A stretch of DNA of 63,492 nucleotides, filler included, from Globobulimina sp. (lineage: Eukaryota): NCBI GenBank assembly GCA_003354225.1. It is 38 parts of 38 records of this genome, joined end to end, with 100 filler letters (N's around TTAATTAATTAA, not from the genome) between each part and the next. Parts side by side here need not be neighbours in the genome. Positions count along the whole stretch, not along the records: positions 60,249 to 61,820 come from PIVH01014671.1; 37 more parts are not named here. One strand, written 5' to 3'. A program made the translations under genes and the position numbers. Below, one piece after another: positions 1-62,230 of this stretch (its first letter is position 1; the number at the start of each line of letters is the position of its first letter). The notes beneath the pieces were generated by a model, which worked only from the letters and a program-made list of their open reading frames with translations, was not told the origin of the DNA and did not search any database.

Positions 1-1537
1 AAAATGGCTCGATGATTCAATAATTGCGAGGCCAACTCTTGGAACGATTGCTTTGCAGATTCACCCGATTTAGCAGAGGTGGTATATAATGGAATACGTT
101 TTTTTGCTGCTACTTCGATGGCTTTTTTTATTAGTTCGGACAATTCAATATCACCGGTCATCTCATTCGACTTTAATAAGTCGATTTTATTGCAAATCAA
201 CATTTGTTCAATATCATCGGGCGCGTTTTCCTCCAATTCATGCATCCAATATTCGACATGTTTCCATGTCGATGGGTCGTCGGCAGCAAATATTATTGCC
301 GCAGCATGAGCACGTCTGTATATATTATTATATTTAGTTATTTGCATAATATCTGAAAGGAAGACTTACCGAAAGAATGTTTTTGTAATCGGAGCGTATC
401 TTTCCTGCCCCGCTGGATCCCAGATAGTAATTTGTAAATCTTCCCCTTGGAAATTACTGAATAAACAGGTGAGTTCCACGCCATTCGTAGCTGTGGTCAA
501 TACAAAATCGTCCAATTCCAAACGCTTTCGCAAGGAAGTTTTGCCGACATACGCATCGCCTATTTATTAACACAAAATATCAAAGTTAACGTTTCCGAAG
601 AAATTCGTCAGAAAATCAGAGGACAAAAACAAATCGCAAATATGAACATTTTTAATGTTCAAGATACCTAACAACAATATGTTGCAGTTCAAAGGGGCAG
701 AATTTTGTGATTTTGGTATTCTGCCCGGTCGGATAATAATTGAATTGGTCAATGGTACATCAGATAACATGGCAGGTTGTTTATTATTAATTGCATTGTA
801 TTTATCAATGGCTTTTATCATTCTCCTCGCGTGGATTATGGGGATATCCATCGACACTAAATCATTGAATGTGATATTACTGAAATCATTCATGGAGACA
901 AAGCCAGCATTCATAAATGTGGAGACATATTCCACCAATTTGATTCTGCTTAAAAACTCTTTTAATTGATTGTACATTTCGACTTCAGAATTAGTTTTGG
1001 GAAAGATACCACATAATAATTCGCTGTCTTTATCTTCGGATAATTCCATATTTGAGCTCGATTTTTCTTTTTCCATATTCGAGTCCAGCGCAAAATGCTT
1101 TTGTTTGGCTGTTTCAAAGCGTTGAATGGCAGATTGCAGGGCATAATTGCGTGTATATGACTTGTTTTTGAGGTCTACGCCGGTTAATGGCGATCGGTTG
1201 TTGTCTGATAACCATTCTTTAAGTGCTACTTCGTCATATGTGTGGCCGTCGTCGTGGAGCCTGTAATATACAGTTATTTTACCGGAAACGCATAAACAAT
1301 ATAATTTTTCAAACAAGATTTAATTATCAAATGACTCCAGTTTGAAATAGGTGGAAAGTGGAAAGTGAAGTCATTTGATTGAGTGCGAGGATAAAGGAAT
1401 GTGACATACATGACAGGTTTAGTCATCATTTCCTTTGAAATTGGACAACGATAAATATCAGGACATGATTCGGCCATATCAAAATCACCTCCTTTTGTAA
1501 AAAATAAATCAGGGTCATCTTCATTATCTGTGTCCAT
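1..1537 (-). CDS. U-box + SAM + Rab-like small GTPase multidomain protein (spliced, partial)
   Basis: GT-AG introns at 1409-1261, 667-560 and 369-316 join in frame. U-box: YRCPISKEMMTKPVMLHDDGHTYDEVALKEWL..SPLTG..NYALQSAI. SAM: LKEFLSRIKLVEYVSTFMNAGF..DLVSMDIPIIHARRMIKAI. G domain: ILLLGDAYVGKTS, IWDPAGQERY, CNKID, TSAKSG. The frame is open at both contig ends. Confidence 0.9.
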
Positions 1538-1575
1538 TGGAATTACAGAAACATCTGTTAGATTTGCAATTGGTT

Positions 1576-1675
1576 NNNNNNNNNNNNNNNNNNNNNNNNN
1601 NNNNNNNNNNNNNNNNNNNTTAATTAATTAANNNNNNNNNNNNNNNNNNNNNNNNNNNNNNNNNNNNNNNNNNNN
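1576..1675. other. Artificial contig-joining spacer (first of 37: 44 N + TTAATTAATTAA + 44 N)
   Basis: An identical 100-bp spacer recurs about every 1.67 kb (3251-3350, 4926-5025, 6601-6700 ... 61821-61920). The 12-mer places stops in all six frames. Contig lengths fall monotonically from 1575 to 1572 bp. Confidence 0.99.
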
Positions 1676-1932
1676 CGTGATTGGGTGAATCTAATCAGAA
1701 CTATCCAGTCCGAAACGCTCAATTAAAGCGTAATTCAAAAAGACGTTCAACTCGTGGCTTATTTAAAAACCTTTCAAAATTCGCTCATAAAAGCGTACAT
1801 TCAGTAGACGTGCGACCAAAAAGTTCGTTCGTGAAGCGTCAAATATGCTCAAAATCAATCGTACAGTCGACGTGCAACAAAACGTTCATAGAAACGTCAA
1901 AACGTCAGATCAGATTTTATCTTTAGTTAAAT

Positions 1933-2952
1933 ATGTCGACTTGTGAACAGATCAGTTCCTCTCAAACAGGGCGAAACGTCGCAACGACTTCGACAGTCGA
2001 CAGTTCACTAATTTCTGATTCTAAATCAAAAAAGGCATTAAATAGTCACAAACCATCGACGTCATCGTTTACGAAAAAGTTAGTTTTTTCGGCTCACAAC
2101 CTTTTTTCTAACTTTAAGGCTAAAGTTCAGGCTAATCATAGACCGGAGAGTCAAACAAAAGTCACAAAACCGACTATAGTCTCAAATCAATCCAAGGGGA
2201 TTAATCAATCAATCCCACACATGACTCAAAGTTGTGCACAAACAACACACATGAGTCAGGGTTATTCCCCGTCGCCAGTTTGGACTCAGAGCTATTCCAG
2301 AATGCCAAAGTTATGTCAGGCAAATCAGGGTGATTTCCCAGTTCAAGTTCAAGTTCAACAATCACCTGGGTACTCAAATAATACTTGCTATCAACGCCTC
2401 ACTCGTTCGGCGAAATCAAATAACGCAAGTTCATACACTCCACGATTATCGTATCAGGGTAGCGGTACACCTTATCAACCAAGTACTCAAAATCAAAATA
2501 GCCGCCGTCCTTCTACGTATCAACCTAGGACAGGTACACCCTATCAACCACGACTGAGACGAGTTGCTACCGTGTCTAAGGAGTCTACTACAGTGCAAAA
2601 CCAACTCAAACGGTCGTGTGTAAATTCGTTGACAAACGTGGAGCTTCAAACATTCAAACAAACAGAACATTGCGACTTCAACGAGAAAATTACCCTCTCT
2701 GAGAAGGCCATATCACAAAAAGTCAAAACAGACAGTCAAAACGTCAAACAACATAAAACTCATCCCTCTACACAAAGGGAACTTCAACAGAAAAAGAAAA
2801 CCATAATGGTCGTGGTTCAAGACTCGGCCGCCAATCCGAGCGTAAAGAATTTGGCTGCATTCAAAAAATGCCAGTATGGTCGACAACAACTTCCTTGGGG
2901 GGAAGGTCCCTACCAGAAATCCTACCCTCGTCCCTGTCGTCGTACATCATAA
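1933..2952 (+). CDS. Ser/Thr/Gln-rich low-complexity protein of unknown function
   Basis: 339-aa intronless ORF with short GTPYQP/TYQP repeats. No recognisable domain. Confidence 0.4.
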   Translation: MSTCEQISSSQTGRNVATTSTVDSSLISDSKSKKALNSHKPSTSSFTKKLVFSAHNLFSNFKAKVQANHRPESQTKVTKPTIVSNQSKGINQSIPHMTQSCAQTTHMSQGYSPSPVWTQSYSRMPKLCQANQGDFPVQVQVQQSPGYSNNTCYQRLTRSAKSNNASSYTPRLSYQGSGTPYQPSTQNQNSRRPSTYQPRTGTPYQPRLRRVATVSKESTTVQNQLKRSCVNSLTNVELQTFKQTEHCDFNEKITLSEKAISQKVKTDSQNVKQHKTHPSTQRELQQKKKTIMVVVQDSAANPSVKNLAAFKKCQYGRQQLPWGEGPYQKSYPRPCRRTS

Positions 2953-3536
2953 GTTTCGGGACAAAGAAGCCAAATCCAAAGAAAAGAGAAGTTACATTTT
3001 TTAATATAAATTTATTTAAATTTATTATATTATAATTTGTTATTATTGTTTATTATTGTATATTCACTTCTTATGTTCTTAGGAGTGTTAATTATAATTG
3101 TTCATTTTTATGTATTTTAGTTCTGTGTCACTGCCGAACTTTCTTGTCGTTCGGGAGTGACAATTCTTAGATTAGATTAGAATTGTAGATTATTTTATTA
3201 TTACACAAATTTGCATAATGCTGTTTTTTAGTGATTACAGTTAGGTGTTGNNNNNNNNNNNNNNNNNNNNNNNNNNNNNNNNNNNNNNNNNNNNTTAATT
3301 AATTAANNNNNNNNNNNNNNNNNNNNNNNNNNNNNNNNNNNNNNNNNNNNATTTATATTTATATTTAAGAGCTTGATAAACTGAGTTTGAACCAGTGGTT
3401 AATGATTGTTCTCCACTTTCAGAAAATGCAGTGCGAGAAAATAGAACTGTTAAAAGTATTGACAGTAACGACATGGCTGATTTGGTTGGTTTTTATTTTT
3501 TGGGTCAGTCACTATCCAGAAAAAACTTTGTTAATA

Positions 3537-4607
3537 ATGCCAGACTTCTGTCCTGTGTCTAGCACATCGGAGGTCACAATGATATTGGCTATTATAACAA
3601 TCATTATTTGTTCCACTTTAATTTGCATCGTAGGCGCCACATCAATTAAAAAATTCCAACCATTAAGCAAGGTACTACCAATATTCAAGGTAACATTCCA
3701 TATGGTTTGGGGTTTTTCAGTGCTTGGTTTGTTATTATGGTTAATATCAATGATATTATGCCGGTTTGAAGTAAATTATCTTGTGGCCGTAATATTTATC
3801 ATAATGGGTATTGTCTGCCTGAATTTTGTATTGGATATTTTATTATTTACTTTACTTGTTCGCTTATATAATACGTTCAAAGGTTCATCCTTCCGGTTAA
3901 GGTATTTAATAGCACATAAACAGCAACATAACGTTTTTAATCTTCATGTTATCACATTTTATTTATATATAATTATACATAGTAAAGCTACACAGATAAT
4001 ATTTGTAATTTCATATTGCGTTGTGGTGATAGCATCATTTATCAGTGTGTCTGTAACAGCGGTCTCGAGCATCACCATTCCCAATACGAGAGTAGTTTTA
4101 ATATGGTTTTTTGTGTATGGATTTTTGTATTGTGGCACCACTGCTGCAGCAACGGTAACATTTGCAACAAAACTAGTTAAAATAACAAATCTCGGAGCAA
4201 GTTCGTCGTTCAATGTTCATATGTTTAACAAACAACAAATAAAAATAATTGAAAGTGCGACGCGTTATGCGTCATTATTGAATATGGGAATATTGAATAC
4301 TTTCATGGCATTGACTCTAGTTTCAATTATATCCATATCATTTAACCGGACAATGGGATCGTTTCATATTGTATTTATATTTTTGAGTATTGAGTATTTG
4401 ATACATGTGCTCACATTCTGGTTACAATATCCATTTGCTACTTTTTATTATAATAAATATTGTAAATGCATTCATTTGTGTTTCAGGTTTATTTTAACGC
4501 AAAAAGCTGAAAAATTATTACTAAAAAAATATGAAAATAATGTTAGTGATAAGAATGATAATAATGATGCTGCAGAATCTGTACATTTAAAAGCAAACGA
4601 AACATGA
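3537..4607 (+). CDS. Multi-pass (about 7 TM, GPCR-like topology) membrane protein
   Basis: About seven hydrophobic segments followed by YYNKYCKCIH and a hydrophilic tail. Probable 81-bp intron at 3902-3982 (gtattt...atacatag). Likely start is MPDFC at 3537. Confidence 0.7.
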   Translation: MPDFCPVSSTSEVTMILAIITIIICSTLICIVGATSIKKFQPLSKVLPIFKVTFHMVWGFSVLGLLLWLISMILCRFEVNYLVAVIFIIMGIVCLNFVLDILLFTLLVRLYNTFKGSSFRLRYLIAHKQQHNVFNLHVITFYLYIIIHSKATQIIFVISYCVVVIASFISVSVTAVSSITIPNTRVVLIWFFVYGFLYCGTTAAATVTFATKLVKITNLGASSSFNVHMFNKQQIKIIESATRYASLLNMGILNTFMALTLVSIISISFNRTMGSFHIVFIFLSIEYLIHVLTFWLQYPFATFYYNKYCKCIHLCFRFILTQKAEKLLLKKYENNVSDKNDNNDAAESVHLKANET

Positions 4608-4784
4608 ATTATTGAATTATTTTAATTACTGTTGCAAACTTACAAATTACCTGTTTTCTGTATTTGTATTTTACCTTTTTTTTTTGGAAACCTTGTGCCA
4701 GCAGTACTAGTCAGTATTTATAACAAACATTCGTCTAAACTGAATCACATGGCAACGTCCATAAACCAATCGTGATTTTTTGTT

Positions 4785-4925
4785 GTATACAGAGTATGAA
4801 GAAGGAGCTGCAAAATATGGATTCCTACTAGAAGCAATCAACATACCTGCAAACAATGTTATTTATACATATTATTATGACATCATCATACAATCGAACA
4901 TGTATAAATACTGCTTCTTTATATC
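4785..4925 (+). repeat. Dispersed repeat (family C), copy 1
   Basis: Clearly similar to the reverse complement of 9718-9830, sharing gctgcaaaatatggat, caacatacctgcaa and catacaatcgaa.atgtataaatactgcttctttatatc. Confidence 0.85.
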
Positions 4926-5025
4926 NNNNNNNNNNNNNNNNNNNNNNNNNNNNNNNNNNNNNNNNNNNNTTAATTAATTAANNNNNNNNNNNNNNNNNNN
5001 NNNNNNNNNNNNNNNNNNNNNNNNN

Positions 5026-5432
5026 GTTTGTGACAAATGATTGCTATTCATATGTCTGATTAATTCACGTGAAACACAGCAATCACACACTTCGTCGATG
5101 AAAATTATATCAGCATTTAGCTTATATATAACATTGGCGATGGTTTGTAAATGGGACATGGCGCCAACTGCGGTTTTTGCGGCAGGTATACGTGCATCAA
5201 ATGTGTCCCATGACGCACAACCTTCTAAAAATAATGAATCTGCGTTGAATTGCATGATCCGAAGGGAATTTTCATTGAGACGCCGATCTTTTGGGTATGA
5301 TGGGGGTATGTTGCAATTGTACGGCGCGCCGAATAATGAACCGTCTCCGCATGTGAATGGTAGTGCGCCTTTGTTTAACCTCTTTGCTGATAATGTATAG
5401 GAAATTGTAATCACTGATAGCAGGAGTTGCAT
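5026..5432 (-). CDS. Secreted endonuclease/exonuclease/phosphatase (EEP) family protein, 5' part
   Basis: Signal-like N terminus plus EEP N-terminal motifs LRIMQFNADSLF and LNADIIFIDEV. Truncated by the spacer. Confidence 0.75.
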
Positions 5433-5533
5433 TATTGGAATATGTTGATGACTGTGAGGGGTTTGATGGTCACATGAACTCTGCTCTTGTGCGAGCTCTA
5501 GTTTTCTTTTGAAATGTTATTAAAACATTAATA

Positions 5534-6469
5534 ATGAAGCTTACTCTTTATTGGTTACTATTATTTGTTACCTGTTGTTGTTACGGTAAACGAGAAGTAT
5601 GGGCCTGGACAAGCAGCCACAAAGCGACCAAAACGATTGAGCAGCTTCAAAATGAGTCATGGAGCGGGATTGTCGATGGACTATACGCTTTTTGTGGTGT
5701 TTCTGTTCATGTAAATCCAGATAATACAACATCAATTATTGTAAATGAAGCAGAATATGATAATTGTACAATGTTACAACAAGTTGCAAGTGAATTAAAT
5801 ATATCATTCCATGTTTGTTTAGGTTCGATACCAGACCAAACCATAACTGATCCATCATCTGTCATTACCTCAGCAATTGAAATGGCAAACAAATATAAGT
5901 GGAGTGGATATAATATCGATGATGAGACAGAATGTGCACCACGTGCTACTTTGGCAAATTTTACAAAATATGTAGATTTTATCAATATATTTTCGGATTC
6001 ATTGCATGAACACAATATTATGGTCACCGCGGATGTTCAGGCTCTATTTGGAATTGAAAACGTGTCATACGTACAAAATTATCCATGCTTATATGTTCCA
6101 TGGAATTATACTACAAACAAAGAGCTCGTTCGAATGTTATCTAATTCGTCAATTGATAGATGGATCGAGATGGATACTTATTACTTCACTTTATCCCGAT
6201 TTATGGATGCATTGGATTGGTATGTTGGAAGCAGTGGTATTCCATTAAAACAGTTAGGTATTGGCCTTGAAAACAGAAATGATATTGAAGTTCCTGATGG
6301 ATATATTTCAAGATTTCATGCTTTATGGGAGTCAAATATTGATTTAATTTCTGTATTCAGAACACCGATTAGCGATACTTTCTTGATGTATTTACGAAGA
6401 TGGAAGACTTACTGTGCAAACTGTCCGCAGATTCAGTTGTCTTGTTTTGAACCAAGTGTTCCTTGCTAA
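5534..6469 (+). CDS. Secreted GH18-like (chitinase/chitobiase-fold) glycoside hydrolase
   Basis: Signal peptide. KYKWSGYNIDDE aligns with the GH18 DxxDxDxE motif with the catalytic Glu kept. MDTY and KQLGIGL match later barrel strands. Complete 311-aa ORF. Confidence 0.6.
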   Translation: MKLTLYWLLLFVTCCCYGKREVWAWTSSHKATKTIEQLQNESWSGIVDGLYAFCGVSVHVNPDNTTSIIVNEAEYDNCTMLQQVASELNISFHVCLGSIPDQTITDPSSVITSAIEMANKYKWSGYNIDDETECAPRATLANFTKYVDFINIFSDSLHEHNIMVTADVQALFGIENVSYVQNYPCLYVPWNYTTNKELVRMLSNSSIDRWIEMDTYYFTLSRFMDALDWYVGSSGIPLKQLGIGLENRNDIEVPDGYISRFHALWESNIDLISVFRTPISDTFLMYLRRWKTYCANCPQIQLSCFEPSVPC

Positions 6470-6700
6470 TCTCATATAATTTCAATCAAATAAATCATAT
6501 ACAGATTTCCCTTCTGAGCACAGACGAAAGACCATTTTTCCATCATGTCACACATAAGTTATCCATTCGTTCATCGTGTTCCATCAAAAAAACAATTTAA
6601 NNNNNNNNNNNNNNNNNNNNNNNNNNNNNNNNNNNNNNNNNNNNTTAATTAATTAANNNNNNNNNNNNNNNNNNNNNNNNNNNNNNNNNNNNNNNNNNNN

Positions 6701-7129
6701 CAATTGAAATACTATTTTGCCAATCAAATTGCCATCGATAGTAATATCAAAATAAACTGTGTATACCTTTATTGCTCCAAAAAAAGTCATTACAATCAAT
6801 TTAATCCCATGCGGTATATTCACAATCGTTTGTTTTCGTAAATAACCACATATTAAATATTCCAATGCGTCTTTACTTTTACAAATGTCTCGTTTTTCAC
6901 GTTTTAGTGGTTTAGCACGTGATGATTTCTTCACTTTTAGTATTTTATTGACTTGTGATAAAGTATTAATATCTGTCGCTTTGTTTTGATTCTGTAATAT
7001 TAATTCAATCATAACTGATTTTTTAACATGAATCGATACTTTGTTCTGTTTACAGAGTTTAATCAATTTACGTTTTGACAATTTCCTCAATTTTTGCTTT
7101 GTGTAACCCTTTTTAGATTCAGATGACAT
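6701..7129 (-). CDS. Cyclophilin-type PPIase with N-terminal SAP/HeH-like helical module (5' part)
   Basis: The last residues before the spacer, VYFDITIDGNLIGKIVFQL, are the typical cyclophilin first strands. The N-terminal LRKLSKRKLIKLCKQNKVSIHVKKSVMIELIL is SAP/HeH-like. Confidence 0.65.
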
Positions 7130-7181
7130 TATTTGCTTAAATTCTTCTGCAAAAACTGCTCAAAGACGCACACTTTTAATC

Positions 7182-8274
7182 ATGCAACCGTGGATCGACG
7201 ATTTTGTCACAGCTTCTTTTGGTAAGCAGAATAGTGAAGAACCACAGTTAAGAAATATCACACTAATTCAAGCCCAAAAGTTCAACATAATTTACAATCT
7301 ATGACATAAATTGTTTGTAAACAGTTGGGATAAAGACAGACAACGTTGCGCGCAAATAATTGAGCGCGTTAAATCCAAACCTAAATCATCCAACAAATCA
7401 AACACAAACAAATCAAACCAATCAAACCGTACAGGAATAACCTTAATAATCTCGGACAGTGCACTCCAAATCGAATGCAAAGTAATCCCGAAATTGATAG
7501 AAATGCATAGTTACTCCTCATTCGAACCAAACAACATCATAAAGTTACAAACATTCGATTTGCGAATCTCATGTTCGTTCGAAGCCATATATTTTGTGCT
7601 GATGGAATGCTCCTTTTTAACGGCACTCAATGTCGCTCATATTGGCACACATAAAAAACGCGTACCACATATTAACAACGACAGAAATATCCAACGCTTA
7701 ATGACCAAACACCGAATCTCGCAGTTTTTCAAATTCAATTCGAAAGACGGCACACCAGAGTTCGATGAAAATAATTTGCCGTATTCATTATCATTGCATT
7801 CAGCGCAGGAAATGGATTCATTCGGCTTTGACAATGAAATCAATTCACTCAAACAAACGTTTACCACAAAGCCGGACAACGAGTTGCAGCAAATCGGGGC
7901 TTTGGACGAGTATAATTTGCACGAATTGTGTCTGGAACAGCAACCTGTAAATACTGCAAACGATGATGATGAAGATATGGTGGAGGACAACGAGGACAAT
8001 AATGGCGACATTGAGGCACAAAACATTGAGATTAACATCAAAAAGACATCGGATAAGGAGGAGATGGAAGAGGATGATCATGAAAATGAGGAAAAGGAAA
8101 TCACAGTGCCGGAGAGTGAGTGCATCGGCAATCAATGTGATTGGCTGTATTGTTTGTATCCAGATTTCAGAGATATTCCCAAGAGGTTACGGGTGAAAGC
8201 AAAGGAGATTGAAAAGCCAGTGCATACTCCGGCGGTGGTCCGTAATTACAAAAAGAGGAAAGTGCCGCCTGTGG
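7182..8274 (+). CDS. TPP1/ACD/Est3-like OB-fold protein (spliced, 3' partial)
   Basis: MQPWIDDFV at 7182. A predicted intron at 7247-7324 removes an in-frame TGA. It continues AQIIE...ITLIISDSALQIECKV...IIKLQTFDLRI...IYFVLMECSFL, then an acidic disordered linker. Confidence 0.6.
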
Positions 8275-8374
8275 NNNNNNNNNNNNNNNNNNNNNNNNNN
8301 NNNNNNNNNNNNNNNNNNTTAATTAATTAANNNNNNNNNNNNNNNNNNNNNNNNNNNNNNNNNNNNNNNNNNNN

Positions 8375-9439
8375 AATGGGAATAGAATTTATTATCAAAA
8401 CAGATCACAACCGCCGTTATTGACCTTTATGATGGATTTAATTTATACCTTCGAAGATAACAATGATTCATTTATTACACAAAATGTCCACTATTTAGAC
8501 ATATTAAAAACAGAATATTTTTGGTGGATGGATCAGCAGAGCATCAACCTCCATAATTATACCTTGAATTTATATCATATTCATAGCAATAAACCGAGGC
8601 CAGAAGGTTTCAGACAGGATGTCGCATTGACTAATTTATTGACAAATAAGTCATCAGCAGCACTCAGATACGCTTACAGCTCATTGCGATCCGCAGCTGA
8701 ATCCGGGTGGGACTTCTCCAGTCGATGGTGTTTGCACTTATATTGCGAGCTGGACTTAACAAATATTGATACCATAAATGTTGTTCCTGTGGAATTAAAT
8801 GCGTATTTATATCACATTGAAATGACACTGTCAAAGTTGTTTGGCATTGTGAATGGCAGCCAAGATGTTGAATATTTTATAAATGCTGCAAATAAACGGT
8901 TGGATGCGATGTATAATGTATTTTGGGATAACGTTAATAAACAATGGAATGATTATGACATTAGGAATGATGAACAAATTTATGAATCGGGGAAAAGCTC
9001 GGTTGCGTCGTATATTCCTTTGTGGCTGTTGCCGTATAATGAGAGCATTGGAGTCGATGTGTTGACCTCATTGAATAAGAGTGGCTTGTTATATGTTGGC
9101 GGTGTGTCTACAACGAATGTGGCTGACAGTCAACAATGGAGTTTCCCGAATGCGTGGCCGCCTCTTCAATGGATTATAGTACAAATTGCAAAAAAGTATA
9201 ATGATACAGAAATTGGACAGTATATTCTACAAAATGTCACTCAAACGTATATTAATGCTGCTTATATTGGATTGAATAAAACTCGATTTATGAGTGAAAA
9301 ATATAATGTTGTCAATATTGGCGAATCAGGTCATGGCGGCGAATATGAATCACAGCTTGGATTTGGTTGGAGCAATGGTGTGGCATTCTCATTTCTATAT
9401 GATTTTGGTGATTGGTTGGTGGCACCAACTCTAACATGA
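8375..9439 (+). CDS. treh: Trehalase, glycoside hydrolase family 37 (5' partial)
   Basis: NGNRIYYQNRSQPPLL, PRPEG, SAAESGWDFSSRW, PVELNAYL, QQWSFPNAWPP, MSEKY and GGEYESQLGFGWSNGV are GH37 signatures. Confidence 0.95.
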   Translation, partial: NGNRIYYQNRSQPPLLTFMMDLIYTFEDNNDSFITQNVHYLDILKTEYFWWMDQQSINLHNYTLNLYHIHSNKPRPEGFRQDVALTNLLTNKSSAALRYAYSSLRSAAESGWDFSSRWCLHLYCELDLTNIDTINVVPVELNAYLYHIEMTLSKLFGIVNGSQDVEYFINAANKRLDAMYNVFWDNVNKQWNDYDIRNDEQIYESGKSSVASYIPLWLLPYNESIGVDVLTSLNKSGLLYVGGVSTTNVADSQQWSFPNAWPPLQWIIVQIAKKYNDTEIGQYILQNVTQTYINAAYIGLNKTRFMSEKYNVVNIGESGHGGEYESQLGFGWSNGVAFSFLYDFGDWLVAPTLT

Positions 9440-9464
9440 ATTTAATTCACTAATAACTCTATTC

Positions 9465-9606
9465 ACATCTTTGGCGTTGCACTTTCCAATGTTCATGTCT
9501 CACTTTTTCAATTTGTGTGGCGTCGCACTTTTTCATTAAAATGTGGAGTGTGTACACCACCTAAAAAGAGTCTTACTGCTATGTTGCGCTTTTAGTCTTA
9601 CTGCTA
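9465..9606 (+). mobile_element. MITE-like family A, 3' portion
   Basis: Degenerate gtggcgtc.cacttttt units as at 43261-43424. Ends in 9581-9606, the reverse complement (24/26) of 43261-43286. Confidence 0.7.
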
Positions 9607-9717
9607 GTAATTATATAAGTCTTTCTGTTCGGTCCTCAACGTTGCTTTAATCTGATTAACTAGATCAACATATGCAAAGTTTAGATATGGAATATTATAC
9701 CCCATGAGGTTATCAAT

Positions 9718-9830
9718 GATATAAAGAAGCAGTATTTATACATCTTCGATTGTATGGTCATGTCATAATAATTGCAGGTATGTTGTCTACTTCAAGGAGA
9801 TCCATATTTTGCAGCTTCTTCTTCAGACTC
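9718..9830 (-). repeat. Dispersed repeat (family C), copy 2
   Basis: The reverse complement matches 4785-4925 with indels. Confidence 0.85.
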
Positions 9831-10048
9831 TTTGGTGTACAGTAGTGTCCCCGATAAGATATACGCATATGATTAGATAATATAGCTAATATATTGATCA
9901 TATAATATATTACACAGCGAAGATTTTTTTGTTTACTATATTATCTACNNNNNNNNNNNNNNNNNNNNNNNNNNNNNNNNNNNNNNNNNNNNTTAATTAA
10001 TTAANNNNNNNNNNNNNNNNNNNNNNNNNNNNNNNNNNNNNNNNNNNN

Positions 10049-35158: not shown

Positions 35159-36559
35159 GTTATTCGTTTTCAATTCAAATACCAACAAACAGGAATCGAT
35201 CGAAGAATATATAAAATAAAAAAGAACATTGAAAATAATAATCATTTATTAGTACATGTCAATAAGAAACAAGTCGGCTGTACACAACAAGAATGCGGAT
35301 TAAGCCAAGGAGGTACAATGTCATTGACCGATGTTTCCATTACAACAAATCCAGCGATAAAAAGCGGTGAACAAAAATTAAAGGGCGCGATAATACCATT
35401 AAAACCAAGCCAAAATGTAATAAATCCGCAAACATATAATATGTCTCAATTGGAACAACAACAAAACCAACAACAAACGCAAAATCAACAGTGGCAAATA
35501 CAAATTAAAATAGTATCAACGATATTTGCATTTATTTATGTAGACGACGCATTATTAATTGCCTTATCAATCTTAGATTTAAATATAAATATCAACCACG
35601 TTGTTAATGAATTACGACCGATTGGCGCAAGAATAAAAATTGCAAAATCAGTGATTATTATAATTAACGCAATGTATTTATGTGAAAGTGAATTTGAATT
35701 GTATCAAAGTAAAAATATTGATATTCAAATTGATGGAGAAAAACTAAAAGTATTAGAAAAAGAAACAAAATTTAAATATTTGGGACTAACAATGCAATTT
35801 AATGAAAAGCAAAAACAATTCGAATGGAAGTATCACTTAAATAACATAATTGGAGCAACGTACGGAGCAATAATTGCTATCCCAAACAAAATAACAAAGA
35901 TATTAAATATTAAGACAAAAATATTGATATTATTGTCAAGAATAAATATCTATGCTTTATCCATAATAAAAATGAACGAGAATCAAATAACTAAATATGA
36001 AAAGTGCATTGCGTATGCAATCAGAAAATTAATTGGCGTATATACAACAACGAAAGGAGCGATATTACATATTCTATTCGGCATTAATCGTATGAGATGT
36101 ATTAATTATAAAGCAATGATAAAATTCTATATTAAAATAATGAGAGGGCATGATAATACATTAAAGAATATGATTATTACACAACAAAGAATGCTGAGTA
36201 AAAAAAATGAAAGTAAACAAATAAAACGACGATTAGTTCAAAATAGAAAAATAAATAAGTTTGAGATACAGCAAAACAATCAAACATATTATCATCAGAT
36301 AAAATATATCATTGATGCGTATAATCTAAAAAAAGAACAATTGAATCAAAAACAAGAAAAAAGAATGGAGTATGAGAATATCATTGATTCAGTATCGTAT
36401 CAAAGAGATTTAATCCGAGTAAAAAACGAGGAGAACCTAGGTGGGTCGGGGACCCTTAAACCCTTGAGAAGAAGGTGCGGCAGCGGTGCCGCCGCACAAC
36501 CGCACTTCGTATATCTCATCAAGGGGATAATCCTACGGAAAAATGACAATATTCCATGA
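35159..36559 (+). mobile_element. Non-LTR retrotransposon reverse transcriptase fragment
   Basis: Frame open from the contig start. GLSQGGTMS, FIYVDDAL, KIAKS, FKYLGL and downstream thumb helices. Confidence 0.85.
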
Positions 36560-48443: not shown

Positions 48444-48872
48444 NNNNNNNNNNNNNNNNNNNNNNNNNNNNNNNNNNNNNNNNNNNNTTAATTAATTAAN
48501 NNNNNNNNNNNNNNNNNNNNNNNNNNNNNNNNNNNNNNNNNNNCAGTGCTCTGCTTGAGCTATGCGACCATTTCTGTTGCATTTACCATTATCGATTTTC
48601 TATGTGGAGGTTTATTTTGCAAATGAAGTATAAACCATATGGAGAGACAGTAGAGGCAATAGAGTGAGGACTATTTATTAATCCACGCTGCTGGCAAGCA
48701 ATCCTCTTAGACATAAGTAGACTTGAAATGTAACGGGGCATAGTCTAATGTGTTTTTCCCACTACACACTGTAGCCACAACTGATGACCTAATTTTCATT
48801 GTGGTGATCGGATTTCAACTTTTTTAGTTAATCGCTCACCACAATACACTGCAGACACAAATTAGCTCAATA

Positions 48873-56904: not shown

Positions 56905-58134
56905 AACATGGAAAAATTACTAAAAATAGTCGGAAATTATGCACAAAAATGGAAAATTGAATTTTCGGGTCCAAAAAGTTTAATTATACCATTAAACAGA
57001 AATATAAATACCAATAGAAAATGGAAGCTAGGGAAAAAGCACATAAGTGAACATGAGGAAACGGACATATACATTAAAGAAGAAAAAGAAGCGAAATATT
57101 TAGGAATCACTCTAAGTAATAATAATAAAGATATAACGAATCAACACAAATCTAAATTAGGTGATATGACCCGCAAAGAAGCCTACAGATGTTTCAAACC
57201 AGCTTTGGCCACTGCTAGATCCATCATGTATGGGGCGAAAATATGGAAAACATATGTAATACCAAAAATATTACATGGAATCGCATCAATATCATATACT
57301 AAAGAAACTTTTAAAAAAATCGAAATCCAAGAACGAGAATATATAAGAACTATTGCCCGATTACCGAAATTTACAAATAATATGGTCTTATATGGAGAAA
57401 CCGGAATACTTCCTATGTCCATGGAAGCAGATAAACGAACAATTAACTATTTTGCACATATCCAAAATCTAACTACCGATAACATTGTAAAAATTGTTTT
57501 ATTAGAACAAATCGAAATATACAATAACAGAAAAAATCCACAAATATGGATAACACATGCTATAAAATGTTGTAACAAATACAATATTAATCCCTTTAAT
57601 ATACCTAAAAAGAACAAAGTTAAAGAAATAATCAATCACCATTGGAAAGATAAATACAATAATGTCATTGAAAATGCAGGATCTCTGGTGCATTATCGGG
57701 ACAAATTGAATCCTAAAATAAATAACAAATTAAACCTTCAAACTGGAGGAGATTTCTGGCTGAAAATAAAAGCCGGTTGTCTTGTTTTAAACGATCGTGC
57801 AAACCGCCCTTGCACTAGATGTAATGAAAATAAACTTGAAACTGCAGAACACTTAATGTGGGAATGTGAACAAAATATTTATTTGAATGAATTCGAAAAT
57901 AATATACATAAATTGTGGATATTATTACCAACTAACATATATGGACATGTAAAACCTAATTACAATACATGTACTGATAAAGAACGTACGCAATTTCTGA
58001 TGCTAACAACAGATTATATCCTAAGTGATACAGCTTCAGGATTAATAATAAACATAACCGGAAACATAATCAAAGATGCGTATAAAAATAGACCTGAAAC
58101 TATTGAATATCAGGCACGATTTAATAAAAAATGA
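56905..58134 (+). mobile_element. Non-LTR retrotransposon ORF2 3' end (RT thumb + CCHC zinc knuckle)
   Basis: YAQKWKIEFSGPKS, KYLGI, WKTYVIPKILHG, LYGETG and CTRCNENKLETAEHLMWEC. Confidence 0.9.
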
Positions 58135-59265: not shown

Positions 59266-59377
59266 CATTTGTTTTTTTTATTGTTTGTACGTGTGAACTC
59301 TCAAGAATGTATAACGATTTGTTGTGTATCTGTGTTATGTATACTGTTATTTTGAATTTATTGGCATTGCCTTTAAT

Positions 59378-59473
59378 AGGCATTTTTGCTTTATCGTAAA
59401 AATCTGTGTTTAAACAGAAAAAATCAGTTTTTTCCCTTAGAAAATAGATTTTTACGATAAAGCAAAAATGCCT
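59378..59473. mobile_element. MITE-like family B, 96 bp with perfect 28-bp TIRs
   Basis: AGGCATTTTTGCTTTATCGTAAAAATCT (59378-59405) / AGATTTTTACGATAAAGCAAAAATGCCT (59446-59473). Confidence 0.88.
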
Positions 59474-59551
59474 TATGCATTCACTAAACACTTTTATTTT
59501 GAAACATGCAACATTAATTTAACTTTTTGCTCAGAAAACTCTAGTTACTCA

Positions 59552-60148: not shown

Positions 60149-60584
60149 NNNNNNNNNNNNNNNNNNNNNNNNNNNNNNNNNNNNNNNNNNNNTTAATTAA
60201 TTAANNNNNNNNNNNNNNNNNNNNNNNNNNNNNNNNNNNNNNNNNNNNGACGATGATAGCAAAACAATGACCAATGTTCAACGAATACAGCAATCCTTAT
60301 TTGCCTCTGGTTTACCAAAGCCACAATCTACTATAAAAAAGCGGAAAAAATAATATTTTCTAGCTTGTTTCTTGTGAGAATTCCAATCAATTGTTTTAAA
60401 TTAAATTGTATATAGTTTTCTTTTTTAAATTGATGCCACTTTGAGTACCGTCCTCGTACAGCACAGCACCTACAGAGCTCAGGTATTGTCCGTTGTGCAT
60501 AATGCATATCTATGCCTAATACTAATCGACATATGTTTAGTCTCTATTATTTTATTTTATTTATTACTAAAAGATATATAAAAA

Positions 60585-60648
60585 TGTGATGATTGAGATT
60601 TGGACCCAAATCTTATTTAATAAGATGCTCTCAATGAGCAATCATCAC
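60585..60648 (-). ncRNA. tRNA-like small RNA candidate, copy 1 (no variable loop)
   Basis: Minus strand: GTGATGA TT GCTC-ATTGA-GAGC A TCTTA-TTAAA-TAAGA T TTGGG-TCCAAAT-CTCAA TCATCAC A, then T5. Confidence 0.6.
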
Positions 60649-61185
60649 TATCTATCAATGAGCAATCAAATAAATTATATATCGATATGGGCGCCATAAA
60701 TAGCAAAATAACTGATGAGGGGCTTCGCCGCCATAAATACCATAATAACCATAATAAATTGGCGAGCTTCGCTCGGAGAATCCATTGTTTTTGATGCTGC
60801 GAAGACAAAAAAGTTTTGCTTTGAGCTTAATTTCATCGATCTTTTGTGTCTCGTTGGATGGATTATTATAGAGAGAATCTCGTTGGATGTAATGTTTGTA
60901 TTTCAATTTTTTCCCATAAACTCAATCAAAAATCCGAAAACATATATTAGTTTCAATTATTATGATGATACCAAATTCATTGTATGGTCATTTTTTGGAA
61001 TTTACCCAAAAAAACGCAGTAAAAGTGGAATTACTCCACTCCTTTTGAGCCGTTTACTCCACTAAGGGCAGTAAAATAGAAACGAAAAACAATCTTGTAC
61101 ATTATTGGTAAAACAAACAAAAAACAAAACCTTATATAAAACAAAAAAATGTGACGAATTACGGGATATTATTAAATAAAAAAAA

Positions 61186-61249
61186 TGTGATGATTGGGAT
61201 TTGCACCCAAATCTTATTTAATAAGATGCTCTCATAAAGCAATCATCGC
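61186..61249 (-). ncRNA. tRNA-like small RNA candidate, copy 2 (no variable loop)
   Basis: Minus strand: GCGATGA TT GCTT-TATGA-GAGC A TCTTA-TTAAA-TAAGA T TTGGG-TGCAAAT-CCCAA TCATCAC A, then T8. Confidence 0.6.
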
Positions 61250-61344
61250 CTATCCACCTCCTCCAGCAAAATCCATCCATCAATAATACCATATCACTAT
61301 AAAGTATAACAAATAAATGTGTAAATAGAAACATAAATAGATAC

Positions 61345-61504
61345 TTAATTGAGTGATGTTACGATCATTTGATGATCGCATTTGGATAATTGAACAGGAT
61401 CGGACTTGTTGACTGCTTCCATGATAAAAGATGTAAAGAAAAAAGAAAAAGTTTTGTTACCTTAAGTTAGTCACTTTATCATGGTCTCATTAGTCTACAC
61501 AAAG
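61345..61504 (+). ncRNA. Box H/ACA snoRNA candidate
   Basis: Hairpin 1 (TTAATT/AATTGA, CGATCAT/ATGATCG). H box ACAGGA at 61394-61399. Hairpin 2 (GTTGACT/AGTCTAC, pocket GCTT/TCTCATT, CCATGATAAA/TTTATCATGG). ACA at 61499-61501, 14 nt after the upper stem. Confidence 0.6.
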
Positions 61505-62230
61505 GATGCGTATAGATGGATTATATGATGTATTTATTGCACTGATGGGTTTGGTACATCTGATGGATCTATATTATGTGTTTTGTTTTGTGTTTTTGTT
61601 ATATTAAAATTTTCAAAAATATCATAATTTCAAAAATATCACGGGAATATTATTTTTTATTATTATTATGTTCTTTTTTTGGGAAAAATATTGTACCCAT
61701 ATTCAGTTGGTATCTTGACTGAAGGGCGCGCCCCCTCGACGTGAAAAACTTTGTTTTTGGAAACACGTTACCCAGTCTCGATATTCAATTTGTTTTACTT
61801 TCTCTGCAATAAACGTGTTTNNNNNNNNNNNNNNNNNNNNNNNNNNNNNNNNNNNNNNNNNNNNTTAATTAATTAANNNNNNNNNNNNNNNNNNNNNNNN
61901 NNNNNNNNNNNNNNNNNNNNATTATATTTAATAAGATAACGACATATATATATATATGTGAAAAAAAATCGGGAAAAAATGTTATAGAAAAACAAAAAGA
62001 AGAAAAAAAAATAATGATAAAAAGTTATAATAATTCAGCATTACACACAATAAATCACACAAACACGTTTGAAACAATTACAAAACGAATTAATTAAACA
62101 AAAAAGTAAATTAAAAGAAAAAAAATAATGAAAATTTAAACAAATCTATAAAAAAATAAAAACAAACAAACACTAAACACACAAACAAGGAAACCAAATT
62201 AAAGAAACAGTCTCCATAAGAAACAATATA

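Follow-up and report, generated by a model that had tools for sequence, protein, structure and literature searches.

Sequence evidence for a family of anticodon-less, tRNA-derived modules as cargo of DNA elements in Globobulimina sp.

Judged from its sequence, a family of tRNA-derived modules in the Globobulimina sp. assembly (GCA_003354225.1) is real, conserved and transposon-borne. Comparison of the copies demonstrates that the arms of the module originated from tRNA, that the anticodon was lost, that two or more unrelated kinds of element carry modules close to their ends, and that pairing in the stems of one family, F1, was restored by compensation. We lean towards reading the module as a Pol III promoter with a pre-tRNA-like transcript, which would have been retained for a benefit to the elements carrying it.

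The window, i.e. the whole analysed stretch of 63,492 nucleotides, is a series of mutually unrelated contigs, about 1.57 kb in length, with N spacers between them, and the assembly searched with it is A+T-rich and comprises 70 Mb in 48,370 contigs. A DHX15 fragment identifies it as eukaryotic, the best hit with a name being from a cercozoan. Both units from which the analysis started lie on one contig (window 60249-61821, locus L001) and comprise the following features:

60585-60648, minus strand: tRNA-derived module F1, copy 1, with A-box position 9 and B-box T55 changed and a G.U pair in the T stem
60580-60584, minus strand: T5 run after copy 1, a possible Pol III terminator
61186-61249, minus strand: tRNA-derived module F1, copy 2, with the same two box lesions as copy 1 and one acceptor mismatch
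61178-61185, minus strand: T8 run after copy 2

A sequence-only reading of the window had described these two 64-nt minus-strand units with their T5 and T8 runs, and positions and runs were confirmed, as were the arms it had drawn: a 7-bp acceptor, a D stem with a 5-nt loop, a middle arm and a 5-bp T stem with a 7-nt loop. The six differences between the copies also agreed with its account (the D loop accounts for two and the T loop for one; two more give G.U pairs, and the last is an acceptor mismatch). Folding z-scores of the minus strand were -4.1 for copy 1 and -2.6 for copy 2 against 200 dinucleotide shuffles, with about equal values on the plus strand (-4.8 and -2.8, 200 dinucleotide shuffles); since the plus strands beat their shuffles as well, folding by itself cannot give the strand of the units. 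The minimum-energy fold of copy 1 differed from the cloverleaf. ARAGORN called no tRNA in the window, and an Rfam search of the window returned no tRNA (RF00005) match at E<=5. In both copies T replaces the purine at A-box position 9, and T55 of the B box is occupied by C or G. The window copies are ordinary decayed F1 members with damaged A and B boxes and are probably weak or silent.

What had been taken for a two-copy unit turned out to be numerous: when one mismatch was allowed, the assembly contained 303 matches to the 17-nt T arm of F1 (control 0), and 70 of the first 100 exact T-arm matches listed possess the canonical TTCAAAT T loop and hence a full B box. A DNA search with the unit gave 199 candidates in the assembly, 40 of them scored, and a pattern of D arm and T arm only, matching 162 places, revealed sister families. 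F2 (250 pattern places, control 0) has a 5-nt D loop and a 5-bp middle stem with a loop of 4-15 nt; F4 and F6, together at 67 pattern places (control 0), have a canonical D loop, and rarer forms were seen at L122, L159, L233 and L237. The conserved D-loop guanines G18-G19 are absent from F1 and F2, both with 5-nt D loops, and present only in F4 and F6. Like a decoding tRNA, the module has a 7-bp acceptor with discriminator and a 5-bp T stem with a 7-nt loop. The tRNA-derived A and B boxes are present in the family, with a spacing of about 24 nt in the shrunken module and one lesion per box in the window copies.

Ordinary tRNA genes occur beside the modules. Among 63 scored candidates in the assembly 57 matched RF00005, a few of them modules, and ordinary tRNA-Leu(TAA) genes were present at L228, L232 and L239. 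ARAGORN called one F2 copy tRNA-Ile, a few family members outside the window pass tRNA recognition by loop expansion, and the modules inflate tRNA counts in this genome. Comparison with the genuine tRNAs among these 63 candidates revealed no close match that might represent a parent of the modules, the best scores being those of other modules. A tRNA-shaped gene with a long anticodon-loop insert (L245, C3129:804-952) has a T arm resembling that of F4, and tRNA genes with encoded CCA (L030-L033, L037, L049, L230) are probably bacterial contamination of the assembly. No tRNA halves were found beside U1-like loci at the 3 loci retrieved (41 candidates scored). A metagenome scan gave four module loci (L140-L143), all in a single record set that may not be independent of this assembly; two matches in a viral scan were both judged to be chance.

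For analysis of the stems 110 of the F1 copies with an exact T arm were taken, part of which had entered by similarity in whole-unit or D-arm searches; 10 lay at contig ends and 13 had no 5' part, leaving 87. For covariation the divergent L122 and the interrupted L181+ were dropped and identical rows merged, resulting in 77 rows. Departures from the majority sequence amount to 0.044 and 0.072 per site in the two acceptor strands, 0.18 in the D loop and 0.16 in the middle loop. Double changes in acceptor and D pairs produced Watson-Crick pairs 27 times and another combination once, against a shuffled mean of 7.7 and a maximum of 16 in 2000, in a test that ignores the relatedness of copies. They represent seven states, six of which are compensatory (acceptor pairs 4, 6 (twice) and 7; D pairs 2 and 4), four of these six being transition pairs. 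The case that the earlier reading had named against itself, many copies with substitutions random with respect to the stems, thus does not apply. Single changes in the F1 stems gave 30 G.U pairs, 11 A.C pairs and 25 other mismatches, and the minus strand is favoured as the RNA because G.U outnumbers A.C by 30 to 11. From these counts the acceptor and D stems of F1 are taken to be maintained by compensatory change.

A cross-family alignment of 24 rows, all picked after a pairing filter, had 95% of its cells paired (35-44% in slid controls) and two-sided changes at 11 of 16 pairs, for which different parent tRNAs may account. In F4 only the inner four acceptor pairs persist and the outer ones drift, with both boxes nearly invariant; in F6 all seven acceptor pairs are kept. 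A run of at least four Ts follows 55 of the 87 F1 copies, and the discriminator and T run of F1 vary by carrier subfamily.

The middle arm behaves differently. The window-type 5-bp arm is perfect in 25 of the 87 F1 copies, an alternative consisting of a 4-bp arm, a 4-nt loop and a 4-nt variable region is perfect in 23, and two copies fit both; one G/T change shifts the register, and 23 of the 87 copies carry indels in this arm. The absence of a variable loop, previously thought to characterise the units, therefore does not extend to the family: as the registers alternate in F1 and the variable region of F2 is normal (4-5 nt), it is a trait of one subfamily only. The proposed TAA anticodon had to be given up as well, since the middle loop varies in sequence and length. 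A constant 7-nt anticodon loop on a 5-bp stem was not found, register, sequence and length of the middle arm all being variable, and because the middle loop is constant in none of them, F1, F2, F4, F6 and the rarer forms have no anticodon. The module shows how far a tRNA gene can shrink, with neither anticodon nor D-loop GG, and still keep its stems paired.

The flanks of the two window units, which had been described as unrelated, belong to related repeat families, carrier B being inserted into the end of carrier A. Both flanks were available for 81 copies, and 74 of these have a flank in common with at least one other copy, in about ten flank families, so that modules travel inside larger repeats; the same count speaks against the stand-alone small-RNA gene family that had been suggested. 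The remaining seven are solos with unique flanks on both sides, most of which look damaged, and apart from one A+T-rich 7-mer they gave no sign of target duplication. Within 450 nt, 37 of the 87 copies have a recognised element end or family marker. F1 units in different downstream-flank clusters are about 83% identical, and their 150-nt flanks align at 0.52, compared with 0.52 when shuffled. Orientation is not fixed, as F1 points toward the near end and F2, F4 and F6 away from it. The module is carried as cargo by non-autonomous DNA elements and lies some 70-250 nt inside one of their ends.

Several other arrangements were observed around the modules. Paired modules often face each other at distances of 250-2,400 nt in the combinations F2/F4, F1/F2 and F1/F1 (L146, L156, L157, L158, L143, L179, L008, L172, L019), where convergent Pol III transcription could yield double-stranded RNA if no T run stops it. 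One F1 subfamily (L112, L116, L121, L126, L133, L137, L167, L346) has, by eye, an RCC1-like gene on the opposite strand, with the module about 100 nt beyond its stop codon; this gene looks like a captured host gene. In a single case, which may be due to chance, an HLE2-type 3' end shared with L186 and L200 joins the middle arm of an F1 module (L181, about 1090-1130).

One group of F1 carriers is termed A-D, and two of them, A and B, occupy the contig of the window units:

60560-61000 (start approximate), minus strand: main body of carrier element A, holding copy 1 and shared with L101, L371, L377, L383, L386 and others
60721-60776, minus strand: two G+C-rich GNA-triloop hairpin units (60721-60732 and 60762-60776), remnant of the central tandem array of A
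60986-61000, minus strand: subterminal inverted repeat of A, cut by the insertion of B
61001-61785, minus strand: carrier element B, holding copy 2 and nested in A, with the outer ~22 nt of its hairpin end missing
61001-61040, minus strand: sharp terminus of B, with terminal inverted repeat (61001-61016) and short hairpin (61024-61040), found at 43 places in the assembly
61674-61785, minus strand: subterminal inverted repeat of B (61674-61688) and its partly deleted long terminal hairpin
61782-61821, minus strand: long terminal hairpin of A, resuming after B and cut by the contig end; the same sequence stands after the A repeat in L369-L372, L375 and L378

Carrier A has no terminus downstream of the module in the window. 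On the module strand A and B are arranged as a constant 6-mer with a short arm, a hairpin, a 14-15 nt inverted repeat, the GNA body, the module and a second inverted repeat. The terminal hairpin of A-D measures 160-175 nt with arms near 70 bp; its apex is G+C-rich and partly branched, and its arms differ between subfamilies yet are paired (L281, L380, L378; window 61674-61785). Between the module and the sharp terminus, which is the second inverted repeat, lie 70-232 nt in 27 copies, and GNA-triloop hairpins upstream of F1 copies were counted 79 times on the module strand and never on the other. None of the five both-ended A-D copies showed a target site duplication, and four of the five were without module. 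The base flanking the inverted-repeat end was A, C, G or T in 4, 3, 5 and 4 of 16 cases, respectively, giving no T-T target, and the base flanking the hairpin end was A or T in 27 of 30.

With regard to a mobiliser, the assembly possesses HLE1 and HLE2 RepHel genes, the HLE2 RepHel with DUF6570, and one HLE1 RepHel frame (L107:232-3087) has a SUMO-like (Rad60-SLD) domain ahead of the Rep domain. Among 42 RepHel loci of this fragmented assembly none shares the ends of A-D, those reaching past the helicase ending differently. Long A/B copies lie on contigs C3943, C16678, C17797, C9024 and C2422. In longer A/B copies (L377, L381, L384, L389) a coiled-coil frame (160-180 aa) comes first, followed by a second one; in L389 the frames lie at 3-524 and 814-1290 on the minus strand and correspond to a coiled-coil protein and a second protein without detectable homologue. 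Homology searches with the second frame returned nothing, a feature comparison gave a weak match of the L389 frame to integrase SAM domains (0.79-0.81), and PF00589 and PF12012 did not match on contigs with the second frame, PF00589 also missing the L008 recombinase family. These long copies with two frames are a possible new autonomous family. If the ends of A-D were joined, inverted arms of 7-10 bp would be rebuilt around the constant 6-mer, and these arms co-vary between subfamilies, an arrangement that would fit a rolling-circle nick site or a recombinase core site. We regard A-D, with a slight preference, as HLE2-like; that they are recombinase-type elements is possible, though rather unlikely. 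The tyrosine-recombinase gene upstream of the module at L008 was rejected as a carrier gene: it is part of another element, and the terminal repeat of that element stops short of the carrier. An abundant family of tyrosine-recombinase retroelements (39 matches; L008:2-740, contigs C79, C528, C191) goes undetected by PF00589.

Sequencing runs gave further occurrences, none of the runs listed with the units being recorded as RNA. In run X1 the summed contig depth, which is not a copy number, was 1,300-10,000 over the units and about 5 over unique flank. Run X2 (organism B, study P2) contains the units together with parts of both carriers; as its loose ends match those of X3 and X4 exactly, it may stem from the same or a very close species. 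Runs X2-X4 cover mainly 60249-60466. Elsewhere in the window a long, nearly perfect A+T-rich hairpin with weak microRNA-family matches in the Rfam search (59377-59474) is probably a small inverted-repeat element, and frames at 35318-36559 and 56908-58134 resemble, by eye, C-terminal parts of non-LTR reverse transcriptases.

The sister modules were found in a second, PHIS-like kind of element. F2 lies 203-214 nt (6 loci) and F4 85-248 nt inside one end type, pointing inward; F2 and F6 lie 116-208 nt inside a second end type, also pointing inward, and some F1 copies occur in the same PHIS-like families, pointing outward. At both loci where the two ends of the second type were available (L136, L201), ATT/AAT target duplications and inverted repeats starting with AG were present; the other end family was seen one end at a time. 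Both end types flank DDE_Tnp_4 frames (6 of 30 DDE_Tnp_4 loci). No module was detected in the DNA examined of the 30 transposase-bearing PHIS loci or the 42 RepHel loci. By these features the carriers of F2, F4 and F6 appear to match the Pangu group of PHIS transposons; hAT elements were discarded as carriers, seven hAT loci sharing no ends with those of the modules. One PHIS-like case lies in the window:

48544-48746, minus strand: 5' part of an F2 module (48569-48544), cut by the contig end and situated 177 nt inside a PHIS-like end that starts at 48746 after ATT

In the reading we favour, the module is a tRNA derivative in which the acceptor stem, D stem and T arm survive but no anticodon is left. 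By what is established for Pol III, it would most likely serve as an internal type-2 promoter whose A and B boxes bind TFIIIC; the F1 transcript, of about 64-70 nt, would end at the T run, folding like the top half of a pre-tRNA and presumably handled by the tRNA-processing machinery. Most speculatively, and as the least certain step, binding of Pol III factors might open or shield chromatin beside the end that the mobilising enzyme reaches, and so provide the benefit. The tRNA-like promoter element already considered by the sequence-only reading fits, with A- and B-box sequences present and stems that covary. A promoter alone does not need acceptor pairing, and the promoter model therefore needs an RNA-level step; 25 single changes that break pairs, 13 of 110 copies without 5' part and the differing orientations of the families argue against it. 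For movement the module is not needed, because four of five both-ended copies are module-free and the transposase and RepHel loci are without it. A bolder version holds that unrelated DNA transposons of this lineage, PHIS-like cut-and-paste elements as well as an unclassified family with 170-nt hairpin ends, took up tRNA genes without an anticodon time and again, and that the Pol III transcripts of these genes undergo pre-tRNA processing and act in mobilisation or escape from silencing. It strikes us as doubtful; if true, it would be a DNA-transposon counterpart of SINE heads with an RNA-level function.

Equally doubtful, modules might be neutral passengers, i.e. tRNA pseudogenes captured by a few master elements and amplified, the compensation originating from parent genes, transition bias or palindrome repair. 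In favour of this, some autonomous and short copies lack the module, truncation or mispairing affects many of the copies, and the elements form patchworks nested in one another. However, six compensatory states arose within F1 after collapse of the anticodon arm, identity among F1 units remains about 83% where the flanks of their carriers resemble each other only as much as shuffled sequence does, and modules sit at similar distances from the ends of unrelated families. The kept acceptor pairing in F1 and F6, the T run after 55 of 87 copies and a few divergent, solo-like versions with intact fold (L122, L159, L233, L237) would also suit a host small RNA, an anticodon-less tRNA mimic acting as decoy or scaffold at few host loci and spread secondarily by transposons. 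This is unlikely, as unique sequence on either side was seen in only 7 of 81 copies, most of them damaged-looking, the D-loop GG for the tRNA elbow is absent from F1 and F2, and discriminator and T run vary by carrier subfamily.

Still less probable is a signal in replication or DNA structure, with a cloverleaf forming on a single-stranded or circular DNA intermediate or a short transcript priming the second strand. A-D do look rolling-circle-like, having no target duplication and a long terminal hairpin, and the GNA-triloop hairpins are confined to the module strand (79 versus 0), but the box sequences and not the stems alone are invariant, and sister modules reside in PHIS-like cut-and-paste elements. 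Cut-and-paste transposition of the PHIS type has no single-stranded stage. A tail-less, tRNA-derived SINE retroposing as a 64-nt unit could explain the head with A and B boxes, the high copy number and the non-LTR reverse transcriptase fragments seen by eye in the window; it is largely refuted and very improbable, because the unit is internal to larger elements and has no A tail, and the seven solos show no target duplication beyond the one A+T-rich 7-mer. A real shrunken tRNA-Leu(UAA) or organellar tRNA, for which a 7-nt loop with TAA can be drawn in the window copies, is refuted by the free variation of the loop in sequence and length and retains hardly any probability, given also the ordinary tRNA-Leu(TAA) genes in the assembly and the position of copies between nuclear genes.

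Among known systems, mascRNA and menRNA arise at the 3' end of a long RNA through RNase P cleavage, then RNase Z cleavage and CCA addition. They resemble the module as compact cloverleaves of similar length with full acceptor stem and T arm and no anticodon. In the available text on mascRNA, two D-loop guanines are needed for the elbow and linker residues are absent (PMC11693755), whereas F1 has no D-loop GG, retains the linkers, is equipped with boxes and a T run of its own and occurs in many copies as transposon cargo; with the D-loop GG missing, the analogy to mascRNA drawn earlier breaks down. With tRNA-derived SINEs the modules share a tRNA-derived head, type-2 Pol III boxes and hundreds of copies, but the module is internal instead of a 5' head, in F1 the T run follows directly, and neither an A or LINE tail nor target duplications are present.

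Together with SINE heads, the nearest precedent is Helenus (TRIMp3); there, as in Cassandra, non-functional tRNA-derived sequence with conserved A and B boxes resides in a non-autonomous mobile element and inflates tRNA predictions. According to the passages available, the LTRs of Helenus keep the tRNA A and B boxes without a functional tRNA and are paired, with PBS, PPT and a 4-5 bp target duplication, and the terms 'DNA transposon' and 'Helitron' do not occur in the paper (PMC10886601). Helenus is an LTR retroelement that needs a promoter for its RNA template, whereas the carriers here look like DNA elements. The module, placed 70-250 nt inside the end, could not transcribe the whole element, and acceptor pairing is kept in F1; the ends bear inverted instead of direct repeats, with a target duplication of none (A-D) or 3 bp (PHIS-like).

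On the side of DNA elements, A-D resemble HLE2, Helentron HINE and DINE-1 in short asymmetric inverted repeats, a terminal hairpin, central tandem repeats and no target duplication. HLE2/HINE elements are described, in the portions available, as having a terminal and a subterminal inverted repeat of 11-18 nt, a hairpin farther out and insertion between T and T; the term tRNA occurs in none of the three papers (PMC4067079, PMC11417382, PMC5148889). A-D share this repeat layout with a hairpin beyond, but their hairpin arms reach ~70 bp compared with the published 5-10 bp, there is no clear TT target and no RepHel with matching ends, and longer copies begin with a coiled-coil frame and a second frame. 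Crypton and other tyrosine-recombinase elements have, in the part available, 4-6 bp direct repeats at both termini (PMC3212892), which A-D do not. Elements of this type encode a tyrosine recombinase, and their ends restore a pair of inverted arms with a 6-8 bp spacer between them. With Pangu/PHIS the other carriers share the ANT target duplication, inverted repeats starting with AG and a DDE_Tnp_4 transposase behind the same ends; no tRNA-like cargo appears in the passages available (PMC4482050), and the group assignment here is by features, not by phylogeny. The available parts of PMC6947457 and PMC13085455 contain nothing on tRNA.

Titles and abstract beginnings brought up nothing on DNA transposons that carry tRNA modules, nor on the present family, and Repbase could hold a case. 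Bivalve Pearl elements are said to carry Pol III-like boxes, for which the literature passages and the search gave no confirmation. Small-RNA-derived Pol III promoters are known in retroelements, which need an RNA copy, and DNA transposons do not need one. A conserved tRNA module near the ends of DNA transposons would hence suggest some other advantage, for example that TFIIIC opens or insulates the chromatin. Already known in retroelements (SINEs, Helenus), tRNA modules were here found in what appear to be DNA elements, which seems to be new, and with intact and decayed copies inside and outside of elements F1-F6 form a natural series in which the benefit of the module can be tested.
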